Shown: positions 11,260 to 62,519 of the stretch, piece after piece
How positions within the stretch are numbered: position 1 is the first letter of the stretch
How the letters are laid out: each line of letters starts with the position of its first letter
Origin: Heptranchias perlo
Lineage: Eukaryota
Direction: 5' to 3'
Assembly (NCBI RefSeq): GCF_035084215.1
Contig: NC_090338.1
Span: forward strand, 7,874,001-7,938,000
DNA length: 64,000 nt
The notes under the pieces: generated by a model
The model's input: only the letters and a program-made list of their open reading frames with translations
Databases searched by the model: none
What the model was told of the DNA's origin: nothing
Program-made: the position numbers and the translations under genes

Positions 11260-11421
11260 ATGTAAAGAATCTTACAACACCAGGTTATAGTCCAACAATT
11301 TTATTTGAAAATCACAAGCTTTCGGAGGCTTGTGATTTTCAAATAAAATTGTTGGACTATAACCTGGTGTTGTAAGATTCTTTACATTTGTCAACCCCAG
11401 TCCATCACCGGCATCTCCACA
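11260..11421. mobile_element. Penelope-like element fragment forming a perfect 60-bp-arm palindrome, with a 15-bp TSD
   Basis: Arms 11260-11319 and 11328-11387 are exact reverse complements around an 8-nt loop. Direct repeat TCATGAATATAACAT at 11245-11259 and 11422-11436. Confidence 0.8.
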
Positions 11422-11922: not shown

Positions 11923-14900
11923 GGGCACAGTAGCATAGTGGTTATGTTACTGGTGCTCGTAATCTGGAGTATATGAGTTCAAATCTCTGCTTCTGGTAGC
12001 TGGGGAATTTGATTTCAGTTAATTAAATAAAATCTGGAATAAAAAGCTAGTATTAGTAAAAGTGACCATGAAACTACCAGATTGATGTAAAAACCCATCT
12101 GGTTCACTAATGTCTTTTAGGGAAGGAAACCTGTCTTCCTTACCTAGTCTGGCCTATATGTGACTCCAGACCAACAGCAATGTGGTTGATTCTGAAATGG
12201 CCTGGCAAGCCACTCAGTTGTACAATCTCGCTACAAAAAGACATAATAAGAATAAAACCGCACGGACCACTAGGCACTGGACATGACAAAGGCAAACCAA
12301 GCCCAGTTGACCCTGCAAAGTCCTCCTCACTAACATCCGGGGAATTGTGCCAAAATTGGGAGAGCTGTCCCACAGACTAGTCAAGCAATAGCCTGACATA
12401 ACCATAGTCACAGGATCGTACCTTTCAGTCAATGTCCCAGACTCCTCCATCACCATTCCTGGGTATGTACGGTCCCATCGGCAGGACAGACCCACCAAAG
12501 GTGGTATACAGTCAGGAGGGAGTCCTCAACATTGACTCCGGACCCCATGAAGTCTTATGGCATTAGGTCAAAAATTGGCAAGCAAACCTCCTGTTGATTA
12601 TCACCTACCACCATCTCTCAGCTGATGAATCAGTACTCCTCCATGTTGAGCACCACTTGGAGGAAGCACTAAGGGTAGCAAGGGCACAGAATGTACTCTG
12701 GATTGGGTGCTTCAATGTCCATCACCAAAAATGGCTCGGTAGCACCACTGCTGGCCGAGTTTTTAAGGACATAGCTGACAGGCAGGGCTGCAGCAGGTGG
12801 TGAGAGAACCAACACGAGGGAAAAACCTACTTGACCTCGACCTCACCAATCTACCTGTCACAGATGCATCTGTCCATGACAGTATTGGTAGGAGTGACCA
12901 CCGCATAGTGCTTGTGGAGAAGAAGTCCCGTCTTCACACTGAGGACACTCAGTTGTGTGGCACTACCACCATGCTAAATCGGATAGATTCAGAACAGATC
13001 TAGCAGCTCCAAATTGGACATCCCATGAGGCACTGTGAGCCATCAGCAGCAGCAGAACTGTATTCCACCACAATCTGTAACCTCATGGCCCGGTGTATCC
13101 CTCACTCTATCATTACCATCAAGGCAAGGGATCAACCCTGGTTCAATGAGGAATGTAGAACAGCATGCCAGGAGAAGCACCAGGCAAACCTAAAAATGAG
13201 GTGCCAACCTGGTAAAGCTATAACATGCATGCTAAGCAGCGGAAGCAGCATGCTATAGACAGAGCTAAACAATCCCACAACCAACGGATCAGATCAAAGT
13301 TCTGCAGTCCTGCCACATCCAGTGGACAATTAAACAACTAACGGGAGGAGGAGACTCCGTGAACATCTCCATCCTCAATGATGGCTGAGCCCAGCACGTG
13401 AGTGCAAAAGACATGGCTGAGGCATTTGCAACTATCTTCAACCAGAAGTGCCGAGTGGATGATGCATCTCAGCCTTCTCCCGAGATCCCCACCATCACAG
13501 AAGCCAGTCTTCAGTCAATTTGATTCACTCCACGTGATATCAAGAAATGGCTGAGTGCACTGGATACAGCAAAGGCTATGGGCCCCGACAACATCCCGGC
13601 TGTAGTGCTGAAGACTTGTGCTTCAGAACTAGCTGTGCCTTTGCCAAGCTGTTCTAGTACAGATACAATACTGGCTTCTACTCGACAAAGTAGAAAATTG
13701 CCTAGGTATGTCCTGTCCACAAAAAGCAGGACAAATCCAATCCAGGTAATTACTGCCCCATCAGTCTACTCTCAATCATCAGCAAAGTGATGGAAGGTGT
13801 TGTCGACAGTGCTATCAAGCAGCACTTACTTACCAATAACCTGCTCACCGATGCTCAGTTCGGGTTCCGCCAGGACCACCCGGCTCCAGAGCTCATTACA
13901 GCCTTGGTCCAAACATGGACAAAAGAGCTGAATTCCAGAGGTGAGGTGAGAGTGACTGCCCTTGACATCAAGACAGCATTTGACCGAGTGTGGCATCAAG
14001 GAGCCCTCGTATAGCTGAAGTCAATGGGAATCAGGGGGAAAACTCTCCAGTGGCTGGAGTCATACCTAGCACAAAGGAAGATGGTAGTGGCTGTTTGGAG
14101 GCCAATCATCTCAGCCCCAGGACATTGCTGCAGGTGTTCCTCAGGGCAGTGTCTTCGGCCCAACTATCTTCAGCTGCTTCATCAATGACCTTCCCTCCAT
14201 CATAAGGTCAGAAGTGGGGATGTTCGCTGATAATTGAACATCATTCAGTTCCATTCGCAATCCCTCAGATAATGGAGCAGTCCGTGCCCACATGCAGCGA
14301 GACCTGGACAACATCCAGGCTTGGGCTGATAAGTGGCAAGTAACATTCACACTAGACAAGTGCCAGGCAATGACCAACTCCAACAAGAGAGAGTCTAATC
14401 ACCTCCCTTTGACATTCAACTGCATTACCATCGCCGAATCTCCCAACATCAACATCCTGGAGGTCACCATTGACCAGAAACTTAACTGGACCAGCCACAT
14501 AAATACTGTGGCTATAAGAGCAGGTCAGAGGCTTTGAATTCTGCGGCAAGTGACTCACCTCCTGACTCCCCAAAGCCTTTCCACCATTTACAAGGCACAA
14601 GTCAGGAGTATGATGGAATGCTTTCCATTGGCCTGGACGAGGCTAGCTCCAACAACATTCAAGAAGCTCGACACCATCCAGGACAAAGCAGGCCACTTGA
14701 TTGGTACCCCATCCACCACCCTAAACATTCACTCCCTCCTCCACCGGTGCACGTGGCTGCAGTGTGCACCATCCACAGGATGCACTGCAGCAACTCGCCA
14801 AGGCTTCTTTGACAGCACCTCCCAAACCCGTGACCTCTACCACCTAGAAGGACAAGGACAGAAGGCGCATGGGAACAACACCACCTGCACGTTCCCCTCC

Positions 14901-15128
14901 GAGTCACACACCATCCCGACTTGGAAATATATCACCGTTCCTTCATCGTCGCTGAGTCAAAATCCTGGAACTCCCTTCCTAACAGCACTGTGGGAGAACC
15001 ATCACCACACAGACTGCAGCTGTTCAAGAAGGTGGCTCACCACCACCTTCTCAAGGGCAATTAGGGATGGGCAATAAATGTCGGCCTCGCCAGCGACGCC
15101 CACATCCCATGAATGAATTAGAAAAAAT
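11923..15128 (+). mobile_element. Essentially full-length (~3.2 kb) ORF1-less CR1-group LINE 'family Z': tRNA-like 5' head, APE endonuclease, RT, 3' hairpin, A-rich tail; this copy is inactivated by stops and frameshifts
   Basis: A box TAGCATAGTGG 11931-11941 and B box GTTCAAATC 11977-11985. EN motifs (FNVHH, LLDLDLTN, GRSDH) and RT motifs (QFGFR, ALDIKTAFDRVWH, PQGSV, MFAD). Ends GGGCAATAAATG...CCCATGAATGAA. Confidence 0.88.
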
Positions 15129-15154
15129 TACAGTTCTGCCGGTGGAGGTGTTGC

Positions 15155-15370
15155 ACTTATACAGCACTTTTCACAATCTCAGTACATCCCAAAGCGTTTA
15201 CAGCCAATGAAGTACTTTTTGAAGTGCAGCCACTGTTATAATGTAGGAAACACATCAACCAATTTGCTCACAGCAAGGTCCCACAAACAGCAATGAGATA
15301 AATGACCAGATCATCTGTTTTAGATGTTGGTTGAGGGACAAATGTTGACCAGGATTCAGGGAGGACTCTC
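15155..15370 (-). mobile_element. Deu-domain SINE 3' fragment
   Basis: Same motifs as 7595-8015. Confidence 0.7.
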
Positions 15371-16204: not shown

Positions 16205-16640
16205 TTTTTAAAATTTGTTCTCAGGATGCAGATGCTGCTGGCAAGGCCGCATTTTTTGACCACACCTAGTTTCCCTGAGAAGGTGGTGATGGGACTTCTT
16301 TTTGGTCACTGCAATGATGGTGCTCCCACTATAGTGTCAAGTTGGGAATTCCAGGATATCGATCCAGCGACAATGAAGGAATGGCGATATATGTCGATGT
16401 CAGGATGGTGTGTGAATTGGAGGGGAACTTGGAGGCGATGGTGATCCCACAACATTGCTGCTCTTGTTCTTCATGGTGGTAGAGGTCACAGGGGAGGGAG
16501 GTGCTGTTGAAGTAAGTGCGGCGGGTTGTTACAATGCATCCCGTAGATATTACATGCTGCACCACAGCATGCTGGTAATGGAGTAGGTGGATACTGAGTC
16601 CAGGGGTTGATGCACTGATCAAAGGAACTGCTGATTTGAA
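16205..16640 (-). mobile_element. Older, diverged family-Z LINE 3' fragment
   Basis: Reverse complement resembles 14700-15120 (GAGAAGGTGGTG, CCAGGAT..GA.CCAGCGAC.ATGAAGGAA). Confidence 0.7.
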
Positions 16641-18436: not shown

Positions 18437-18785
18437 TTTTTTTGATTCATTTTCAGGATGTGGGGGTTGCTGGCAAGGCCGGCGTTTTATTGCCCGATCC
18501 GAGTTGCCCTGAACTGAGTGGCTTAAGAGGGCAGTTAAGAGCTACGTTGGTGTGGGAGTGGAGCCACATTTAGGCCAGACAGGGAAGGGGGCAGGTTTCC
18601 CTCCCCAAAGGACATCAGTGAACCAGTTGTGTTTTATATAACAATCCAACAGCTTCATGGTCACTTTTACTGATACCAACTTTTCATTTCCAGATTTTGA
18701 AAACTAAATTCAAATTCTCAAGCTGCCACGGTGGGATTTGGAACTCACATTGTCTGGATTATTAGTCCAGAAATACAACCATGCC
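18437..18785 (-). mobile_element. tRNA-headed SINE equal to the 5' ~300 nt plus 3' ~65 nt of LINE family Z
   Basis: Reverse complement aligns to 11930-12220 (head, GTGACCATGAA, CTGGTTCACT, CCACTCAGTT) and then jumps to the LINE 3' end (AGGGCAA...GGGCAATAAA...CTTGCCAGC...CACATCC). Confidence 0.8.
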
Positions 18786-20060: not shown

Positions 20061-21314
20061 CACTTATTTTCTTTCTTTGGCGATTAAATCTCAGTAATAC
20101 CAACCATCTATTTGTTTGGAAAATAACACTCGCTATTGGTGGGATAAATATATTAATCACAGTATTACCTTTTTAGCCCTTTTAATACCTACTTTCTTAA
20201 CCTACAAGAAGTCGCTTCTTAAAACATTACAATGTGTTTGAAACGACTTTCAGCATATTTATTAGAAGTTAGAAATGCACAGCAGACCAGTCAATAGAAA
20301 GATAGGTTAAAATAGAAACAGAAAAGAAAACAATATGTATTTAGTTATAGAGGAGCCCTCTCCGATTTCCCAGATTATCCATGCTCTCCTCTCCCCTCTC
20401 CCCAGCCTTCTGCTACTCTGCTGTAAACATTTACACCTCCTCTGAACCCATCTTTTGTTTTCTCATTATCACCTCCTTTCACCTTGCACCATCAACAACA
20501 ACGACTTGCATTTATATAGCGCCTTTAATATAGTAAAACGTCCCAAGGCGCTTCACAGGAGCAATTATCAATCAAAATGTGACACCGAGCCGCATAAGGA
20601 CAGGTGACCAAAAACTTGTACAAAAAGGTAGGTTTTAAGGCGCATCTTAAAAGAGGAGAGAGACGTAGAGAGGTTGAGAGGTTTAGGGAGGGACTTCCAG
20701 AGCTTAAGGCCTAGGCAGCTGAAGGCATGGCCGCCAATGGTGGAGCGATGAAAATCGGGGATGTGCAAGAGGCCAGAATTGGAGGAACACAGAGATCTCG
20801 GAGGGTTGTAGGGCTGGAGGAGATTACAGAGATAGCGAGGGCGAGGCCATGGAGGGATTTGAAAACTAAGGATGAGAATTTTAAAATCAAGGCGGCCAGT
20901 GAGCACAGGGGTGATGGGTGAACAGGACTTGGTGCAGGTTGCATTATGGGCAGCAGAGTTTTGAATGCGCTCAAGTTTACGGAAGGTGCAGGTGGGAGGC
21001 CAACCAGGAGAGCATTGGAATATTTGAGTCCAAGTGTAAGAAATGAATGGATGAGGGTTTAGCAGCAGAGATGGTTTTTTTATTCGTTCATGGGATGTGG
21101 GCATTGCTGGCAAGGCAGGGGCAGAGACAGGTGTTGTTATGGAGGGGAAAGTAGGTGGTCTTGCTGATGGTGAGGATATGGGGTTGGAAGCTCAGCTCAG
21201 GGTCAAGTAGGATGCCAAGATTGTGAACAGTCTGGTTCAGCTTCAGATAATGGCCAGGGAGAGGGATGGAGTTTGTGGTGGGGACCAAAGACAATGGTTT
21301 CCATCTTCCCAATA

Positions 21315-21789: not shown

Positions 21790-22988
21790 TCATTACAGCC
21801 TTGGTCCAAACATGGACAAAAGAGCTGAATTCCAGAGGTGAGGTGAGAATGATTGCCCTTGACATCAAGGCGGCATTTGACTGAGTGTGGCACCAAGGAG
21901 CCCTAGTAAAATTGAAGTCAATGGGAATTAGGGGGAAAACTCTCCAGTGGCTGGAGTCTTACCTAGCACAAAGGAAGATGGTAGTGGTTGTTGGAGGCCA
22001 AGCATCTCAGCCCCAGGGCATTGCTGCAGGAGTTCCTCAGGGCAGTGTCCTAGGCCCAACCATCTTCAGCTGCTTCATCAATGACCTTCCCTCCATCATA
22101 AGGTCAGAAATGGGGATGTTCGCTGATGATTGCACAGTGTACAGTTCCATTCGCAACCCCTCAGATAATGAAGCAGTCCGAGCCCGCATGCAACAAGACC
22201 TGGACAACATCCAGGCTTGGGCTGATAAGTGGCAAGTAACATTCGCGCCAGACAAGTGCCAGGCAATGACCATCTCCATGCAGAGAGAGTCTAACGACCT
22301 CCCCATGACATTCAACGGCATTACCATCGTCGAATCCCCCACCATTAACATCCTGGGGGTCACCATTGACCAGAAACTTAACTGGACTAGCCATATAAAT
22401 ACTGTGGCTACAAGAGCAGGTCAGCGGCTGGGTATTCTGCAGTGAGTGACTCACCTCCTGACTCCCCAAAGCCTTTCCACCATCTACAAGGCACAAGTCA
22501 GGAGTGCAGCTCCGACAACACTCAAGAAGCTCAACACCATCCAGGACAAAGCAGCCCGCTTGATTGGCACCCCATCCACCACCCTAAACATTCACTCCCT
22601 TCACCACTGGCGCACTGTGGCTGCAGTGTGTACCATTCACAGGATGTACTGCACCAACTTGCCAAGGCTTCTTCGATAGCACCTCCCAAACCCCTGACCT
22701 CTACCACTTAGATTGACAAGAGCAGCAGGCACAGGGGAACAACACTACCTGCACGTTCCCCTCCAAGTCACACACCATCCCAACTTGGAAATATATCGCC
22801 GTTCATTCATCGTTGCTGGGTCAAAATCCTGAAACTCCCTTCCTACCAGCACTGTGAGAGAACCTTCACCACACGGACTGCAGCGGTTCAAGAAGGTGGC
22901 TCACCACCACCTTCTCAAGGGCAATTAGGGATGGGCAATAAATGCTGGCCTCGTCAGCGACGCCCACATCCCATGAACAAGTAAAAAA
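21790..22988 (+). mobile_element. Family-Z LINE, 5'-truncated (RT to poly-A), nested in a CR1 tail
   Basis: ORF 21885-22445 with GVPQGSVLGP and MFADD; same 3' end as 11923-15128. Confidence 0.88.
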
Positions 22989-24500: not shown

Positions 24501-27500
24501 CCTTGTTAGGGTTTTTGTTTTACAGTATTTTTGAAAATCGATAATTGGTGAGGCGCGGTATCTCGTCACAGCTAATTATATGGCATCGAAATGCTGTTGC
24601 AGTTATCAAAGGGTTAATATAGCCCTGCCCGAGTCCTCCAATGAGGTGGTGAAGTGGAGCTCGAGATCGGTTACATCAAACTGCACTCCCGCCTTTCCAC
24701 CGGATACAGTAAAAATTCAGAAACAGCACTCGGCTGAGTGTGGGTGAAGCAACGGTAAGGACCAGAGTCTAAGAAATCGGAGATGTTGCCTGCTATGGGG
24801 AGGCTTTGTGTCAGCATGTCTGCAGGTCTTCATGCTGGAACCGGAGGATCAATGTGCGTCTTTACGCATATCGCTTGTTAAATCTCCACTGAAACAATGC
24901 TCAGTTATTTTGCTTCTCGTGCGTCCTAATGCTGAATATAACAAGAACTTGTAAGGTTGGGATTCGCACAAGGTATTACCATGGAAATGGCGAGTTCGCA
25001 AAAAAGTACCTGGTTAAAATGGCAAGTGGTCACCCTTATTATATCGACTTGTGTTTGGGATTTTATCACTGGACAAATTCGGTACTCAATTCCCGAAGAA
25101 CTGAAGCACGGGGCGTTTGTTGGGAATATTGCCGACGATTTGGGATTGGATGTCAGACAGCTGTCCGCTCGCAGGTTTCGCATCGTCCCTGGTCCCAACA
25201 CGCAGTATTTAGAGGTGAATCTGGAGAACGGAATTTTGTTTGTGAACGAGAAAATGGACAGGGAGCAGCTCTGTGATCTCAGCTCCACCTGCTTTCTGCA
25301 TTTAGAGATTGTCATTGAAAATCCACTCGAATTGTACCGCGTGGAAGTGGAGATATTGGATGTGAACGACAATTCTCCCGGTTTCCCTTGGCGCGAATTC
25401 CGTTTGGAGATCGCCGAGTCGGTGGCTCTTGGGGCGCGTTTCCCACTCGAGAACGCCCACGATCCAGATGTAGGCGCCAATTCTCTGCAGACCTACCGGC
25501 TCAGTCCCAATGAACACTTTACCTTGGAGGTCCAGACTCGCAGCGAACGCAATAAATTCCCCGTATTGGTGCTAGAGAGGTCCCTGGACCGGGAACACCA
25601 GGCCGTTCACCAGCTGGTCCTGACTGCCCTGGACGGCGGGGTCCCGGAGAGATCCGGCACCGCTCTGGTAATCGTTACTGTCCTTGACGTTAACGACAAC
25701 GCTCCCGTCTTCGACCAGGCTGTTTATACAGTCTGCCTGGTGGAAAACGCTCCGAGAAACACTTTGGTGATAAAGCTTAACGCCACCGATTTGGACGAGG
25801 GCTCCTATGGAGAGGTGACCTATTCCTTCAGCAACCACGCGCCCGCCAGACTGCGCCAGCTGTTTCGGGTAGAACCCCAAACTGGCGAGATTCGGGTCAA
25901 AGGGGTGGTGGATTATGAAGAGGCGAGTGTTTATGAGATTTATGTACAGGCTAAGGATAGGGGTCTTTACACGGCGGCCGTGCATTGCACGGTGGTGGTG
26001 GAAATCATTGATGTCAACGACAATGTGCCCGAAGTTATACTAACTTCAGTGTCCAGTCCGGTTCGGGAGGACGCTTTTCCCGGGACTGTGATCGCTCTGA
26101 TCAGTGTAACGGACCGGGATTCTGGGGAAAACGGGAAAACCACCTGCTACATTCCCACTCATCTCCCCTTCAAACTCCAGTCATCTTTCAAGAACTATTA
26201 CACCCTGGTCACGGATGACCTGCTGGATCGTGAAAGTGTCCTGGAGTACAACGTTAGCATTACTGTCATAGATTCGGGCTCACCTCCTCTCTCCACCGTC
26301 AAAACCATCCTAGTGCAGGTTTCAGACGTAAACGACAACGCGCCACGTTTTGCACACCCGTCTTACACGGTTTATTTGATGGAGAATAACGCGCCCGGGG
26401 CGTCCATCTGTTCGGTGTCCGCCTTGGATCCAGATATTGACCAGAATGCCTATGTGTCCTACTGCATCTTGAATAGCAAGATAAGGGGCACCCCGATGTC
26501 CACTTACGTCTCCATCAACTTGAACACAGGGAACCTCTACGCGCTGCGCTCTTTCGACTATGAGCAACTCAAGAATTTCCAGGTCCTGGTTCAGGCTCAG
26601 GACGCTGGCTTTCCATCGCTCCACAGCAACGTAACGGTGAACGTGATTATCCTGGATCAGAACGACAATGCTCCGGAAGTCGTGTCCCCGTTGCGCCCGA
26701 ACGGTTCGGCGGAGATGGTGCCTCGATCGGCGGATCCCGGCTATGTCGTGGCGAAGGTGACTGCAGTCGATGCCGATTCCGGCCAGAACTCCCGACTCTC
26801 TTACCAGCTGTTCCAAGCTACCGACCCGGGTCTGTTCAGCGTGGCACCTTTCACGGGAGAAATTAGGACCACCCGCCGCTTTGAAGACCACGACGCCCCC
26901 AAACAAAGGCTTGTCGTCCAAGTCATGGACAATGGACAGCCACCACTTTCCACCTCAGTCACCATCATCGTGTCAGTAGTCGACAGTGTTCCGGAGATCT
27001 TCTCAGACTTAACCGAGAGGCCCGAAAACATCGAATACTTCTCCGATTTCAATCTTTACTTAATCGTCTCTTTAGGCTCGGTCTCATTCGTGTTCCTGGT
27101 GGCCATCATCACCCTGGTCTCCATCAAGTGTCACAAAGATAGACACGGCACCCTTGGCCGCAACTGCCCTCGCAGTACCTGTTGCTCCCGCTGTTGTCTC
27201 CGGAGGAAGCATTCGGGAGACGTGCTCAATAATTCCCACGCCAACTTTCAGATGCCGCCCAGTGTAAAAGCCCCGCCAAGTTGCATGGAAGTGGGCGGCA
27301 GCGGCTCCCTTTCTCAAACCTACTGCTATAAGGTGTGTTTAAGTCCCGAATCGGCTAAGACCGACTTAATGTTCCTCAAACCCTACAGCTCATCCACACC
27401 CGCTGGGAATAACGCGAAGCCTGCTAACCCATACGTGACTGCGTGGAGAAGGCAGACTTCAGATGGGGCAGACATTGGAACCAACGGATCCAGCGAGGTG

Positions 27501-28100
27501 AGTTATGAAATAGATGATCAGATCTTCACCTAATTCTCCTCATTGGAGAAGAGGAAGAATTCGCTATTGGGCATAATTAAATTTTAGTTCCATATTTTAA
27601 GTTCACGACAGGCATTACCGATTATTAAAATAACCACAAGCCATCACCTATTTCAGGCACTGGCGTTTAGGGATAGAATTGTGCCTGTTCTTTGTGCATT
27701 TATCCAGCAGCCCTTCTAACACCTGCGAGTTACCCGCTAGTACCAATTTAGTGGCGCTAGCTAAAGGGGAAAGCAATTGATTGAATTGCGCGATTATTCG
27801 ACCACAGAGCGCCATAAACGGGTTATTGTCACGTTTAGAATGATCCATAACCTGTGATTTATCTTTTTCACAGGTTTCAGGTCTCCATGGTGCGTTGTTC
27901 ATTCCTTGAACGGGAATTAATGAAGAGATCCTTTCTTACGAGATTTCCCCAGTGTAGTGCAGGATATAGCGCTCACAGACTTTTAACATAACAGTGAATT
28001 CAAAGTACTCTATCTCTCATGGCCTGCCGAAAATTGTCTCCGCTACGAATAAAAGCGGCGTCTAGACTACCTACAGTAAATTAGAATGACAGGGACAGTG
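24500..28100. promoter_or_regulatory. CpG island covering the protocadherin promoter, exon and start of the intron
   Basis: CpG is frequent from ~24540 to ~28100, against strong CpG depletion in the flanks. This is typical of protocadherin variable exons that have their own promoter. Confidence 0.65.
24981..27497 (+). CDS. Protocadherin large first/variable exon (clustered-type, with gamma-C/PCDH10-like features): signal peptide, EC1-EC6, TM, variable cytoplasmic domain; spliced in phase 0 to downstream exons not recognised in this window
   Basis: Intact ORF 24957-27533. Strong-Kozak ATG (accATGG) at 24981. Signal peptide ...[19 protein letters not shown] then [11 protein letters not shown]1 C-X5-C motif (CDLSSTC). 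Five DxNDN linkers, giving 6 ECs. TM segment [21 protein letters not shown]. Cytoplasmic motif [21 protein letters not shown]. Consensus donor GAG|gtgagt at 27497/27498, in phase 0 (2517 nt = 839 codons). Confidence 0.95.
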
Positions 28101-46601: not shown

Positions 46602-46631
46602 CGAATCTGATCTTGAATTCCAAGACATCCA

Positions 46632-47638
46632 CAGGACATTGCTGCAGGAGTTCCTCAGGGCAGTGTCCTAGGCCCAACCATCTTCAGCTGCTTCATCAAT
46701 GACCTTCCCTTCATCATAAGGTCAGAAATGGGGATGTTCACTGATGATTGCACAGTGTTCAGTTCCATTCTCAGCCCCTCAAATAATGAAGAAGTCCGAG
46801 CCCGCATGCGGCAAGACCTGGACAACATCCAGGCTTGGGCTGATAAGTGGCAAGTAACATTCACGCCAGACAATTGCCAGGCAATGACCATCTCCAACAA
46901 GAGAGAGTTTAACCACCTCCCCTTGACATTCAACGGCATTACCATTACCGAATCCCCCACCATCAACATCCTGGGGTCACCATTGACCAGAAACTTAACT
47001 GGACCAGCCACATAAATACTGTGGCTACAAGAGCAAGTCAGAGGCTGGGTATTCTGCGGCGAGTGACTCACCTCCTGACTTCCCCAAAGCCTTTCCACCA
47101 TCTACAAGGCACAAGTCAGCAGTGTGATGGAATACTCTCCACTTGCCTGGATGAGTGCAGCTCCAACAACACTCAAGTAGCTCGACACCATCCAGGACAA
47201 AGCAGCCCGCTTGATTGGCACCCCATCCACCACCCTAAACATTCACTCCCTTCACCACCGGTGCACTGTGGCTGCAGTGTGTACCATCCACAGGATGCAT
47301 TGCAGCAACTCGCCAAGGCTTCTTCGACAGCACCTCCCAAACCCGCGACCTCTCCCACCTAGAAGGACAAGAGCAGCAGGCACATGGGAACAACACCACC
47401 TGCACGTTCCCCTTCAAGTCACACACCTCCGGACTTGGAAATATATTGATGTTCCTTCATCGTCACTGGGTCAAAATCCTGGAACTCCCTTCCAAACAGC
47501 ACTGTGGGAGAACCTTCACTACACGGACTGCAGCGGTTCAAGAAGGCGGCTCACCACCACCTTTTCAAGGGCAATTAGGGATGGGTAATAAATGGCGGCG
47601 TCGCCAGCGACGCCCACATCCCATGAACGAATAAAAAG
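46632..47638 (+). mobile_element. Family-Z LINE, 5'-truncated
   Basis: GVPQGSV/MFTDD region through to the CCCATGAACGAATAAAA end. Confidence 0.88.
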
Positions 47639-47885
47639 AAAACACACATGCATTTTCCAAGCTGAAGTGTTGCTTGATAGTGATCAGGGGCAGGAATTCC
47701 GACTGATTTATTTTCTCTTCCTCCTTACCCCAGAACACTGAGGCTGATACTAGTATCCTGCTACTGCCCTAGTGAAGGCAGAACAGACCGAGGGTTGAAC
47801 GTAGGACCGTTTGTTTTGTACGGGTTATGAATTTATTGAACATTTTCATATATGGTTTTGATATTAGGAACTTGGATTCACCTAT

Positions 47886-56934: not shown

Positions 56935-59900
56935 TTTTTTCTTCTTCATTCATGGGATGTGTGTTGCTGGCAAGGCCAGCATTTATTGCCCATCCCTAAT
57001 TGCCCTTGAGAAGGTGGTGGTGAGCCACCTTCTTGAACCGCTGCAGTCTGTGTGGTGAAGGTTCTCCCACAGTGCTGTTAGGAAGTGAGTTCCAGGATTT
57101 TGACCCGGTGACGATGAAGGAACGACGATATATTTCTAAGTCGCGATGGTGTGTGACTTGGAGGGGAACGTGTAGGTGGTGTTGTTCCCATGTACCTGCT
57201 GCCCTTGTCCTTCTAAGACCATAAGATGGCATAAGAGATAGGAGCAGGAGTAGGCCATTCGTCCCCTCGAGCCTGCTCTGCCATTCAGTGAGATCATGGC
57301 TGATCTGATTTTTACCTCAAATCCACTTTCCCGCCTTTTCCCCATATCCTTTGACTCCCTTGCTGATCAAAAATTTGTCTAACTCAGCCTTGAATGTATT
57401 CAATGACTCAGCCTCCACAGCTTTTTGGGGTAAAGAATTCCAAAGATTCACGACTGTCTGGGAGAAGAAATTCCTCCTCATTTCCGTCTTAAACAGGCGA
57501 GCCCTTATTCTGAGACTATGCCCCCTAGTTTTAGATTCCCTCATGAGGGGTAACATCCTCTCAGCATCTACCCTATCGAGTCCCCTCAGAATCTTGTATG
57601 TTTCAATAAGATCTCCTCTCATTCTTCTAAACTCCAATGAGTATAGACCCAACCTGTTGAATCTTTCCTCATAATACAACCCTTCCATACCCGGAATCGA
57701 CCGAGTGAACCTTCTCTGAACTCCTTCCAATGCAAGTATGTCTTTCCTTAAATAAGGGCACCAGAACTGTATGCAGTACTCCAGGTGTGGTCTCACCAGC
57801 ACCCTGTACAGTTATAGTATGACTTCCCTGCTTTTATACTCCAACCCCCTAGAAATAAAGGCCAATATTCTGTTTGCCTTCCAGATTACCTGCTGCACCT
57901 GTATGTTGACTTTTTGTGTTTCATGTACGAGGACACCCTCTGTACCGCAGCATTTTGTAATATTTCTCCATTCAAATAATATTTTGCTTTTTTATTTTTC
58001 CTCCCAAAGTGGATGACTTCACATTTTCCCACATTATATTCCATCTGCTAAATTTTCGCCCATTCGCTTAACGTGTCAATATCCCTTTGCAGACACTTTG
58101 TGTCCTCATCACAACTTGCTTTTCCACCTATCTTTGTATCATCAGTTAATTTGGCCACAAGACACTCTGTTCCTTCATCCGAGTCATTGATATATTTTGT
58201 AAATAGTTGAGGCCCCAGCAATGAACCCGGCGGCACCCCACTAGTTACAGATTGCCATTTTGAAATTGACCCTTTTATCCCGACTCTTTGTTTTCTGTAA
58301 GTTAGCCAATCCATATCCATCTATTCGAGGTGGAAGAAGCCTTGGCGATTTGCTGCAGTGCATCCTGTGGATGGTACACACTGCAGCCACAGTGCACCGG
58401 TGGTGAAGGGAGTGATTGTTTAGGGTGATGGATGGGGTGCCAAGCAAGCGGGCTGCTTTGTCCTGGATGGTGTCGATCTTCTTGAATGTTATTGGAGCTG
58501 CACTCATCCAGGCAAGTGGAGAGTATTCCATCACACTCCTGACTTTTGCCTTGTAGATGGTGGAAAGGCTTTGGGGAGTCAGGAGGTGAGTCACTCGTCA
58601 CAGAATACCAAGCCTCTAACCTGCTCTTGTAGTCACAGTATTTATATGGCTGGTCCAGTTAAGTTTCTGGTCAATGGTGACCCCCAGGATGTTGATGGTG
58701 GGGGATTCGGCGATGGTAATGCCGTTGAATGTCAAGGGGAGGTGGTTAGACTCTCTCTTGTTGGAGATGGTCATTGCCTGGCAATTGTCTGGCACGAATG
58801 TTACTTGCCACTAATCAGCACAATCCTGGATGTTTTCCTGGTCTTGTTGCATGCTGACGGGTTGCGAATGGAACTGAACACTGTGCAATCATCAGCGAAC
58901 ATCCCCATTTCTGACCTTTTGATGGAAGGAAGGTCATTGATAAAGCAGCTGAAGATGGTTGGGCCTAGGATACTGCCCTGAGGAACTCCTGCAATGATGT
59001 CCTAGGGCTGAGATGATTGGCCTCCAACAACCACTCCCATCTTCCTTTGTGCTATGTATGACTCCAGCCACTGGAGACTTTTCCCTCTGATTCCCATTGA
59101 CTTCAATTTTACTAGGGCTCCTTGGTGCCACACTCGGTCAAATGCTGCCTTGACGTCAAGGGCAGTCACTCTCACCTCACCTCTGGAATTCAGCTCTTTT
59201 GTCCATGTTTGGACCAAGGCTGTAATGAGGTGTGGAGCCGAGTGGTCCTGGCGGAACCCAAACTGAGCATCGGTGAGCAGGATATTGGCGAGTAAGTTCC
59301 GCTTGATAGCACTGTCGACGACACCTTCCATCACTTTGCTGATGATTGAGAGTAGACTGATGGGGCGGGAATTGGCCGGATTGGATTTGTCCTGCTTTTT
59401 GTGGACAGGACATACCTGGGCAATTTTTCACATTGTCGGTTAGATGCCAGTGTTGTAGCTGTACTGGAACAGTTTGGCTAGAGGTGCGGCTAGTTCTGGA
59501 GCACAAGTCTTCAGCACTACAGCTGGGATGTTGTCGGGGCCCATTGCCTTTGCTATATCCAGTGTACTCAGCCATTTCTTGATATCACGTGGAATGAATC
59601 GAATTCACTGAGGACTGGCTGCGGTGATAGTGGGGATATCGGGAGGAGGCCGCGATGTATCATCCACTCGGCACTTCTGGCTGAAGATGGTTGCAAACAC
59701 TTCTGCCTTGTCTCTTGCACTCACGTGCTGGACTCCGCCATCATTGAGGATGGGGATGTTTACAGAGCCTCCTCCTCCCGTTAGTTGTTTGATCGTCCAC
59801 CACCATTCACGACTGGATGTGGCAGGATTGCAGAGCTTTGATCTGATCCATTGTTTGTGGAATCACTTAGCTCTGTCTATAGCATGTTGCTTCCGCTGTT

Positions 59901-61065
59901 TAGCTTGCATGTAGTCCTGAGTTGTAGCTTCACCAGGTTTGCACCTCATTTTTAGGTACGCCTTGTGCTGCTCCTGGCATGCTTTTCCACACTCCTCATT
60001 GAACCAGGGTTGATCCCCTGGCTTGTTGGTAATGGTAGAGTGAGGAATATACCGGGCCATGAGGTTACAGATTGTGCTGGAATACAATTCTGCTGATGGC
60101 CCATGGCGCCTCATGGATGCCCAATTTTGAGCTGCTGGATCTGTTCTGAATCTATCCCATTTAGCACGGTGATCGTGCCACACAACATGTTGGATGGTGT
60201 CCTCAGTGTGAAGACGGGACTTCGTCTCCACGAGGACTGTGTGGTGGTCACTCCTACCAGTACTGTCATGGACAGATGCTTCTGCGACAGGTGGATTGGT
60301 GAGGACGAGGTCAAGTAGGTTTTTCCCTCATATTGGTTCGCTCACTACCTGCTGCAGGCCCAGTCTGGCAGCCATGTCCTTCAGGACTCGGCCAGCTTGG
60401 TCAGTAGTCGTGCTACCAAGCCACTCTTGGTGATGGACATTTAAGTCCCCCACCCAGAGAACGTTCTGTGCCCTTGCTACCCTCAGTGCTTCCTCCAAGT
60501 GGTGCTCAACATGGAGGAGAACTGATTCATCATCTGAGGGAGGATGGTAGGTGGTAATCAGCAGGAAGTTTCCTTGCCCATGTTTGACCTGATGCCATGA
60601 GATTTCATGGGGTCCGGAATCAATGTTGAGGACTTCCAGGGCCACTCCCTCCTGACTGAATATCACTGTATCGCCACCTTTGGAGGGTCGTCCTGCTGGT
60701 GGGACAGGACGTACCCAGGGATGGTGATGGAAGAGTCTGGAATGTTGGCTGAAAGGTATGATTCTGTGAGTATGGCTATGTCAGGCTGTTTCTTGACTAG
60801 TCTGTGGGACAGCTCTCCCAATTTTGGCACAAGTTCCCAGATTTTAGTGAGGAGGACTTTGCAGGGTCGACTGGGCTTGGTTTGCATTTGTCGTGTCCGG
60901 TGTCTAGTGGTCCGATGCCAGGTGGTCCTTCCGGTTTTATTCTTATTCTGACTTTTTTAACGAGATTTTACAACTGAGTGGCTTGCTAGTCCATTTCAGA
61001 GAGCAATTAAGAATCAACCACATTGCTGTGGGTCTGGAGTCACATATAGGCCAGACTGGGTAAGG
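56935..61065 (-). mobile_element. Near full-length family-Z LINE (3' part 56935-57214; rest 58325-61065), lacking only the tRNA head and proximal 5'UTR
   Basis: Colinear with 12135-15120, including the 5'UTR block (CTGGCCTATATGTGACTCCAGAC..CCACTCAGTTGT), EN (PDIAILTESYL, GDLNVHH) and RT. Confidence 0.88.
57219..58322 (-). mobile_element. CR1 RT-to-3' fragment nested inside the family-Z LINE
   Basis: Encodes LVRPHLEYCIQFW..LGLYSLEFRRMRGDL and GVPPGSLLGP; CATAAGA tail. Confidence 0.85.
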
Positions 61066-62519
61066 GCTCACTCCTCATACCTTTGTAGTTTCCTTTGTTT
61101 AGATTTAGGACCCTAGTTTCGGATTGGACTACTTCACTTTCCATCTTATTGAAGAATTCTGTTATGTTCTGGTCACTCTTTCCTAAAGGACCCCGCACAA
61201 CAAGATTATTAATTAACCCTTCCCATTGCACAATACCCAATCTGGGATAGCCTGTTCCCTGGTTGGCTCCTCAATGTACTGGTCTAAAAAAACCATCTCA
61301 TACACATTCCAGGTATTCATCCTCCACAGTATTATTGCTAATTTGGTTTGGCCAGTCTATATCAGATTAAAGTCACCCATGATTACTGTAGTACCCTTGT
61401 TTCATGCATCTCTAATTTCCTGTTTGATCCCATCCCCTACATTACCATTACTGTTGGAGGCCTATCGACAACTCCCACCAATGTTTTCTGCCCCTTGGTG
61501 CTTCTTAACTCCACCCAGACTGATTCTAAATCTTGATTTTCTGAGCCAATATCCGTTCTCGCTATTGCTCTGATTTCATCCTTTACTAACAACACCACCC
61601 CACCTCCTTTTCCTTTTTGCCTGTCCTTCCTAAATATCGAATACCCTTGGATATTCAGCTCCCAGCCTTGGTCACCCTGCAGCCATGTCTCTGTAATTGC
61701 TATTGTATCATATCTGTTTACATCTCTTTGCACTGTTAATTCATCTACCTTATTACGAATGCTTCATGCATTCAGATTCAGTGCCTTTAGATATGTATTT
61801 TTAACATTTTTAGACATCTTAATATTTTTTTGTACTGTGGCCGGATTTGTCTTATTACCTTCTTTTTTCTTACCCGGACCCTATTTGTTGTCTTTTGTTT
61901 GTGCACCCTGTCCCTTCCTGACACAATCTGGTTATCCTTACCCCAATCACTTTCCTGCACTGCTTCTTTGTCTTTTCTCTTTACCATCTAGATTTCTTTC
62001 CACCGGGATCCCCCCCACTTAATTAGTTTAAAGCCCTATCTACCTCCCTAGCTATTCGATTCGCTAGAACTCTAGTCCCAGCATGGTTCAGGTGTAGTCC
62101 GTCCCAACGAAACAGCTCTCTCTTTCCCCAGTACTGGTTCCAGTGCCCCATGAATCGAAACCCACTTCTCTCACACCAATCTTTGAGCCACACATTCATC
62201 TCCCTGATCCTATTGACCCTATGCCAATTTGCTCGTGGCTCAGGTAATAATCCAGAGATTATTACCTTTGTGGTTCTGCTTTTTTAATTTCGTCCCTTGC
62301 TGCTCAAACTCTCCCAGCAGAACCTTTTTCTTAGTCCTACCTATGTCGTTGGTACCTACATGGACCACGACAACTGGATCCTTCCCCTCCCACTCTAATT
62401 TCTTATCTAACAATCTCCTGCTTTTTGTTAATTTACCATTTTGTGATTTCAGCCTGTTATTTGGTTGTGCTTTTCACATGCCTTTTTCTGATTCTATTAT
62501 CTCTTGTTTTCATTCAGTG

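Follow-up and report, generated by a model that had tools for sequence, protein, structure and literature searches.

The window, the whole 64,000-nt stretch of Heptranchias perlo DNA that was analysed, contains a decayed retrotransposon on the plus strand at 11923–15128 and related elements on the minus strand. The features discussed below are as follows.

11923–11998, plus strand: tRNA-like head, forming the 5' end of the element; copies across the genome have a sharp common 5' boundary here, with unrelated flanks
11931–11941, plus strand: A box TAGCATAGTGG, from a box-pattern scan; found in 15/15 full-length young copies
11977–11985, plus strand: B box GTTCAAATC, from the same kind of scan; found in 14/15 full-length young copies
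11999–12223, plus strand: conserved non-coding leader, common to the short SINE-like derivatives and the published Zenon consensus of five elasmobranchs
12224–15064, plus strand: broken single ORF with a basic N-terminal extension, APE endonuclease (EN) and reverse transcriptase (RT)
15065–15128, plus strand: 3' tail, a predicted stem-loop followed by a short A-rich end
16205–16567, minus strand: 3' fragment from an older sister lineage, in which the head–leader–EN layout is also seen at other genomic loci
18437–18770, minus strand: short SINE-like element of head, leader and LINE 3' tail, from an older multi-copy lineage
58330–61067, minus strand: second copy, cut at both ends, without a head and lying inside CR1 sequence

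The original prediction, made from the letters of the window, described an A box at 11931 and a B box at 11977. Both are present and form the sole such pair in the window on either strand, with 0.07 pairs expected by shuffling (100 shuffles); ARAGORN called no tRNA in the window. As predicted, the leader leads straight into the endonuclease and RT without space for an ORF1, as the remnants at 12224–15061 follow directly after it. Their frame is broken into eight pieces, and 16 stops lie within the pieces that align; the window copy is therefore dead. Its identity to a young copy is 87.7%, and no TSD was found at it. The second copy begins at position 256 of the young element and contains the expected leader-to-EN junction, the head being absent. 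The short element at 18437–18770 links head, leader and LINE 3' end, as had been proposed, and matches them at 80%, 78% and 81%, respectively; its A box has decayed. A nearby CR1 element had been said to possess an ORF1, and an esterase-like remnant of one was located at 62026–62283 (Pfam Lipase_GDSL_2, E 3e-4, below the curated cut-off).

The same LINE is represented in the window by five further 5'-truncated copies, at 69–640, 21075–21119, 21790–22988, 46626–47642 and 56935–57215. Another short repeat, which we take to resemble a shark Deu-type SINE, adjoins the 3' end of the element at 15151–15300 and recurs in at least eight other places in the window. A near-perfect 120-nt palindrome at 11264–11383 (Rfam mir-2513, 63 bits, below the cut-off of 89) is probably a MITE-like repeat and not a microRNA. 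An 863-aa open frame with putative cadherin-type repeats, at 24942–27533 on the plus strand, presumably corresponds to a protocadherin variable exon.

The head is an integral part of the insertion unit

A search of the 3.25-Gb genome for the head together with the EN start gave 40 listed matches of 10,857 candidates, and 38 of the 39 others were retrieved. Among these 38 head-selected copies, 23 aligned to the 3' end as one block, and most began sharply at the head with unrelated flanks. Because this sample had been picked by its head, two further samples were drawn by protein alone. Among 150 copies scored, 21 had a frame of at least 964 aa, and 20 of these made up one sample; the other was the first 20 of 56 copies found with a 43%-identical foreign protein. 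The 5' starts of these 40 copies lay at most 5 nt from the head in 22 cases, inside the head in seven, in the leader in three and in the ORF in eight, with 18 of the 40 being 5'-truncated. The original prediction holds that full-length copies start at the head and do not extend into an upstream ORF1 or another 5' end; in the 40 protein-selected copies, we found no junction sequence shared by two copies, no ORF1 and no alternative common 5' end.

Full-length copies had also been expected to carry TSDs that enclose the head. TSDs were mostly absent: a TSD of at least 7 nt was detected in 5 of 43 copies (null 3%), and three of the five were of low complexity. The boundary was therefore established from the sharp 5' ends together with interrupted host repeats, 11 of the 43 copies dividing a host repeat that occurs elsewhere with its halves side by side. 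Exact occurrences numbered 5,008 for a 25-nt head word and 7,933 for a 22-nt EN-start word; in the first 24 Mb of one contig (C1), 35 of 74 exact head words had an exact EN-start word 349–445 nt downstream. Head and leader are mobilised together with the EN-RT frame and the tail, and the head is integral to this unit. We are virtually certain that this structure is real, old and common to sharks and rays.

Intact young copies encode one long frame

Fifteen full-length young copies (3.27–3.34 kb, 98.2% alike) contained one frame of 965–987 codons that began about 350 nt from the 5' end, without an ORF1. In an intact copy, the frame spans 973 codons from stop to stop; Pfam identified Exo_endo_phos and RVT_1 in this single 973-aa frame, and the endonuclease and RT catalytic motifs were present. 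The phase between leader and EN was kept in 41 of 46 rows, six mis-anchored rows of the original 52 having been set aside. Short A-rich tails were seen in 17 of the 18 young copies listed (20 examined), and the last 110 nt of a young copy gave a fold z of -2.6. At 3.3 kb and with an intact 973-codon frame under purifying selection, the element is not the short, non-coding unit that defines a SINE. Public shark gene models (P0001, P0013, P0230 and P0241) contain pieces of the LINE protein at 68–82% identity, probably through mis-annotation or exonisation.

In 12 of the 15 young copies, the first in-frame ATG lies behind the endonuclease, at codon ~250; nine ATGs precede the frame in the head and leader of a young copy. 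We rejected a leader ATG just before the frame as the start: though in frame, it is followed in most copies by a stop, either at codon 3 or at codon 9. Variants present in at least five copies were 41 synonymous and 45 not, compared with 296 and 859 among private variants (p 3e-5). For EN alone, the shared variants were 10 synonymous and 6 not (p 0.003); for the RT part alone, the synonymous excess of shared variants was not significant. Since the shared EN variants favour synonymous changes, the endonuclease is likely translated. As the first in-frame AUG lies behind an endonuclease under purifying selection, translation is likely non-AUG, and we infer internal initiation just after the leader. 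RNAalifold returned a weak fold for the leader RNA, without two-sided change between lineages and with an invalid shuffle control; given this weak fold, no IRES structure is claimed.

tRNA likeness of the head

The head was compared with tRNA genes of the same genome, the comparison covering tRNA-Gln genes only. It was identical to one tRNA-Gln gene in 46 of 77 columns and reached 48 of 76 across the tRNA-Gln genes, to which its first 60 nt aligned without internal gaps. The Rfam tRNA model gave a score of 18.7 bits, below the cut-off of 29, over model positions 8–63, the acceptor stem not being covered. ARAGORN recognised a tRNA in the head at 6 of 37 loci and named the anticodon Thr, Ile, Ala or Val. 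The first 95 nt folded no better than shuffles (z -0.3). The element begins one base before tRNA position +1, as SINEs do, and its start has the composition of a tRNA-derived SINE head with A and B boxes, albeit with an Rfam score below the cut-off.

Within the family, conservation of the A and B boxes was not higher than that of the rest. Both boxes were found in 16 of 38 older copies and, in another count, in 9 of 27, the latter figure being low in part because heads were clipped. Between its A and B boxes, the young head duplicates about 20 nt of the anticodon-arm hairpin (locus L088, 1894–2040, and other young copies), and an AT-rich palindrome of variable length follows. Elsewhere in the genome, contig C38 has about 80 matches to the tRNA-Gln anticodon-arm word between 2.56 and 8.86 Mb, many of them about 3.1 kb apart; this is likely a large tandem tRNA gene array.

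Scarcity of T-runs in the sense strand

Vertebrate Pol III terminates at four or more Ts, and TCTTT acts as a moderate stop in mammalian SINEs (PMC9599045). Sense-strand TTTT was absent from 29 of 35 young copies (14/15 plus 15/20), and a run of five Ts never occurred; A4 runs numbered 20–22 in each full-length young copy. No T4 site was common to half of 42 family copies. The controls were 12 CR1 copies of the same genome, those with the longest frames of 150 listed, and they contained 2.2–4.5 T4 per kb and six shared sites. The older sister lineage had 28 T4 against 134 A4 in 32.5 kb, and no T4 site was shared there.

We then used a codon null that keeps the protein and the third-base usage of the element. 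The ORF contained 6–7 TTT, compared with 20–21 under this null (0 of 1,000 draws as low), a depletion of about threefold, and a third-position T before a TTN codon was seen in 0 of 30 cases versus 198 of 942 (p 0.002). CR1 displayed neither the TTT depletion nor the avoidance of T before TTN under the codon null. The three copies of the element tested were near-identical, so this result counts as one lineage. The absence of T4 by itself is only modestly unlikely by chance, with P values for zero T4 of 0.011 (base shuffle), 0.015–0.027 (codon null) and 0.055–0.095 (synonymous shuffle). One CR1 control was also low under the codon null (P 0.034), the Phe TTT:TTC bias on its own was not significant, and CCC and GGG were also somewhat scarce. 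TCTTT occurred at least once in 12 of the 15 young copies, as chance predicts. Thus, the young element generally lacks an internal T4 or longer run, and it does contain the moderate terminator.

A first metagenome scan with a single protein gave no match; 80 metagenome relatives were available for comparison. All 71 with a frame of at least 450 aa hold at least three T4. Two distant relatives also reach a TTT z of -3.1, but with ratios of 0.63–0.75 versus about 0.3 in the element, and 10 T4 runs together with an early ATG are present in the metagenome locus nearest to a moth protein. None of the 80 has an A- and B-box pair 5' of the ORF. One of them carries a consensus pair downstream of the LINE ORF (metagenome contig L152, 6405–6450), perhaps from a neighbouring SINE or tRNA.

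Assembled contigs from four runs of four organisms cover all 30 bins of the element; they give no start, strand or level, and no contig piece spanning head to EN was listed in those four runs. Taken as sequence, the element is supported as carrying the signature expected of a Pol III template. Its tRNA-type promoter and the lack of runs of four Ts favour transcription of the element by Pol III, which we consider somewhat probable.

SINE-like elements that may derive from headed LINEs

The fragment at 16205–16567 (73%) led to the older sister lineage. EN followed the leader in 18 (the query among them) of 30 loci of this lineage, and a head could be recognised in many of these; in eight loci, head and leader were joined directly to the tail. 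In the set belonging to the short element of the window, the leader-tail join fell at variable points in 29 of 30 loci, and EN was there in 0 of 30; TTTT occurred just after the head in 18 of 30 SINE-like copies. The variable junctions and the lineage-matched leader in the sister set suggest that repeated internal deletion from headed LINEs produced SINE-like partners. For the joint reading, in which the coding sequence was purged of T-runs and ready-made SINEs were born repeatedly via simple internal deletion, we see an even chance.

Discussion

We propose that the full-length form is a self-mobilising single-ORF Zenon LINE, of which the window copy is a dead member. The tRNA-like head would act as an internal type-2 promoter, with TFIIIC binding the A and B boxes. 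As there is no T4 terminator inside, Pol III could read through the entire 3.3 kb and would terminate once it reaches flanking DNA. Lacking a cap, the RNA would be translated via internal non-AUG initiation just after the leader, and the protein would bind the 3' stem-loop and copy the RNA back by target-primed reverse transcription, a process established for APE-RT LINEs. Reverse transcription of an RNA carrying the head would return the promoter to each full-length copy, and internal deletions would yield SINE-like partners that retain promoter and tail. We hold the head to be the likely Pol III promoter of the LINE, ahead of a Pol II and a processing explanation. Points against Pol III are the TCTTT in 12 of 15 young copies, the TTTT just after the head in 18 of 30 SINE-like copies, A and B boxes conserved no better than the rest, and the difficulty of translating an RNA that has no cap.

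The leading alternative, which we regard as possible though clearly less probable, is that Pol II transcribes the element, starting in the head or leader. The head would still be integral, its tRNA part would derive from a captured SINE as a relic or helper, and the scarcity of T-runs would have another cause, such as avoidance of splice or polyadenylation signals. LINEs are normally Pol II transcripts (PMC10886601, PMC5786205), but the present element starts one base before tRNA +1 in the manner of SINEs. All Zenons have a poly-A tail (PMC13343379), and in our element AATAAA at the 3' end runs into the A-tail, although AATAAA is also found at RNA positions 138 and 383. A capped RNA would be easier to translate; however, with nine upstream ATGs and an AUG-less endonuclease part, ordinary cap-scanning does not explain translation either. 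The T-run statistics have weak points that leave room for Pol II, among them modest P values, the CR1 control at P 0.034 and a single lineage, whereas the retention of T-runs in headless relatives speaks against this alternative.

It is improbable that the element is transcribed by host Pol II read-through, with the tRNA-like fold serving as an RNase P-type processing signal that sets the 5' end. The precise 5' end near tRNA +1 and the ARAGORN calls in 6 of 37 loci agree with such processing, but the Rfam match is confined to model positions 8–63 with the acceptor stem absent, and shuffled sequences fold as well as the first 95 nt do. Processing would likewise give an uncapped RNA requiring internal initiation, and it does not predict the loss of T-runs. 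The 5' end of R2 is set by a ribozyme, which offers a parallel to the proposed tRNA-like processing. A chance join, either a SINE that landed beside an ordinary LINE or a local chimera, can be dismissed, as the original prediction had argued: most copies lack a clear TSD, yet split host repeats, protein-selected copies starting at the head, exact head and EN-start words that number in the thousands and keep a fixed spacing, the same layout in the sister lineage and a published consensus from five species that carries the head together refute it.

If Pol III indeed transcribes the element, the textbook divide between coding Pol II LINEs and non-coding Pol III SINEs would break, and a vertebrate would possess a natural, long, protein-coding Pol III transcript. 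There would also be a direct route to SINE birth, in which the ORF is deleted and promoter and tail are kept, explaining a possible source of the SINE 'body'. The numerous intact young copies make the promoter and the translation start directly testable, and such a compact element, with one ORF and a Pol III promoter, might also attract builders of retrotransposon insertion tools.

Comparison with known systems

The element has a single frame with APE and RT, no ORF1 and a poly-A type tail, and, judged by its identity with the elasmobranch Zenon consensus (first 400 nt, by eye), it belongs to the elasmobranch Zenon LINEs described in 2026 (PMC13343379). That paper reports ORF1-less, poly-A-tailed Zenon LINEs in five elasmobranchs, none of them deposited in a repeat repository. 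The published elements (SquAca_Zenon-1/2/3 and CarCar, RhiTyp, ScyCan and HypSab _Zenon-1) are about 3.3 kb long with one APE-RT frame, an A-tail and no ORF1, and, as described there, do not differ structurally from the element studied here. In its supplement, a 15-nt leader word is exact in six of seven elasmobranch consensus rows, and, by eye over the first 400 nt, all seven begin with head and leader. By the same inspection, these rows keep A- and B-box-like words with a variable spacer between them, the stingray B box being degenerate, and the hagfish and coelacanth Zenon rows lack the head and contain T-runs. The words tRNA, pol III and promoter are absent from the main text of PMC13343379; the LINE family is known, and its tRNA head, T-run loss and missing AUG appear to be unremarked in that text. 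The prediction of a minimal self-mobilising LINE thus stands in that the head is integral to an autonomous ORF1-less LINE of about 3.3 kb with the sequence signature of a Pol III template, whereas the ORF1-less structure had already been published (Zenon, PMC13343379). Our survey of the open-access literature found no description of a tRNA-headed autonomous LINE, although a possible pol III promoter in non-LTR elements is mentioned in passing (PMC3894237) and the 5' UTR of Ingi-3_AC is stated to hold SINE-like sequence (PMC5786205).

In a quick RT tree of 61 of 62 rows, which contained no labelled Zenon rows, the element grouped with a whale shark fragment in a 41-row clade (SH-aLRT 91) that also held moth and amphioxus RTs and from which shark CR1 was separate. 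The element is not a canonical CR1, as it has no ORF1 and its RT, on a separate branch, is 31–33% identical to that of shark CR1. Lepidopteran Zenon and Persaeus present a similar pair, a single-ORF CR1-group LINE of about 3.3 kb with short derivatives made of its 5' and 3' parts; Persaeus, whose 5' part comes from Zenon, is described as having neither tRNA homology nor a Pol III promoter, unlike the derivatives here (PMC6740152).

tRNA-derived SINEs, including shark HE1 and SacSINE1 and the bipartite Bov-tA and SINE2-1_ACar, resemble our family in combining a tRNA-like head, A and B boxes included, with a conserved body and a LINE 3' tail. They are short, non-coding and dependent on a partner LINE, whereas in our family the coding LINE itself bears the head. 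Judged by their descriptions, HE1 and SacSINE1 have other partners (HER1 and CR1-4_DR-like or L2-2_CM, respectively). R2 retrotransposons resemble the element in having a single ORF and, likely, an uncapped RNA with non-AUG translation; they differ in rDNA co-transcription, ribozyme excision, site-specific insertion and another endonuclease type. The R2 ribozyme is mentioned in PMC5786205.

SINE length, 100–700 bp, has been tied to weak Pol III processivity (PMC10886601), and at 3.3 kb the element is far longer, which counts against Pol III. A parallel outside SINEs for the promoter proposed here is found in the TRIMp3 elements Cassandra, Helenus and Ajax, retroelements that have a small-RNA-derived Pol III promoter; unlike our element, they are non-autonomous LTR elements of 0.3–1.3 kb and encode no protein (PMC10886601).
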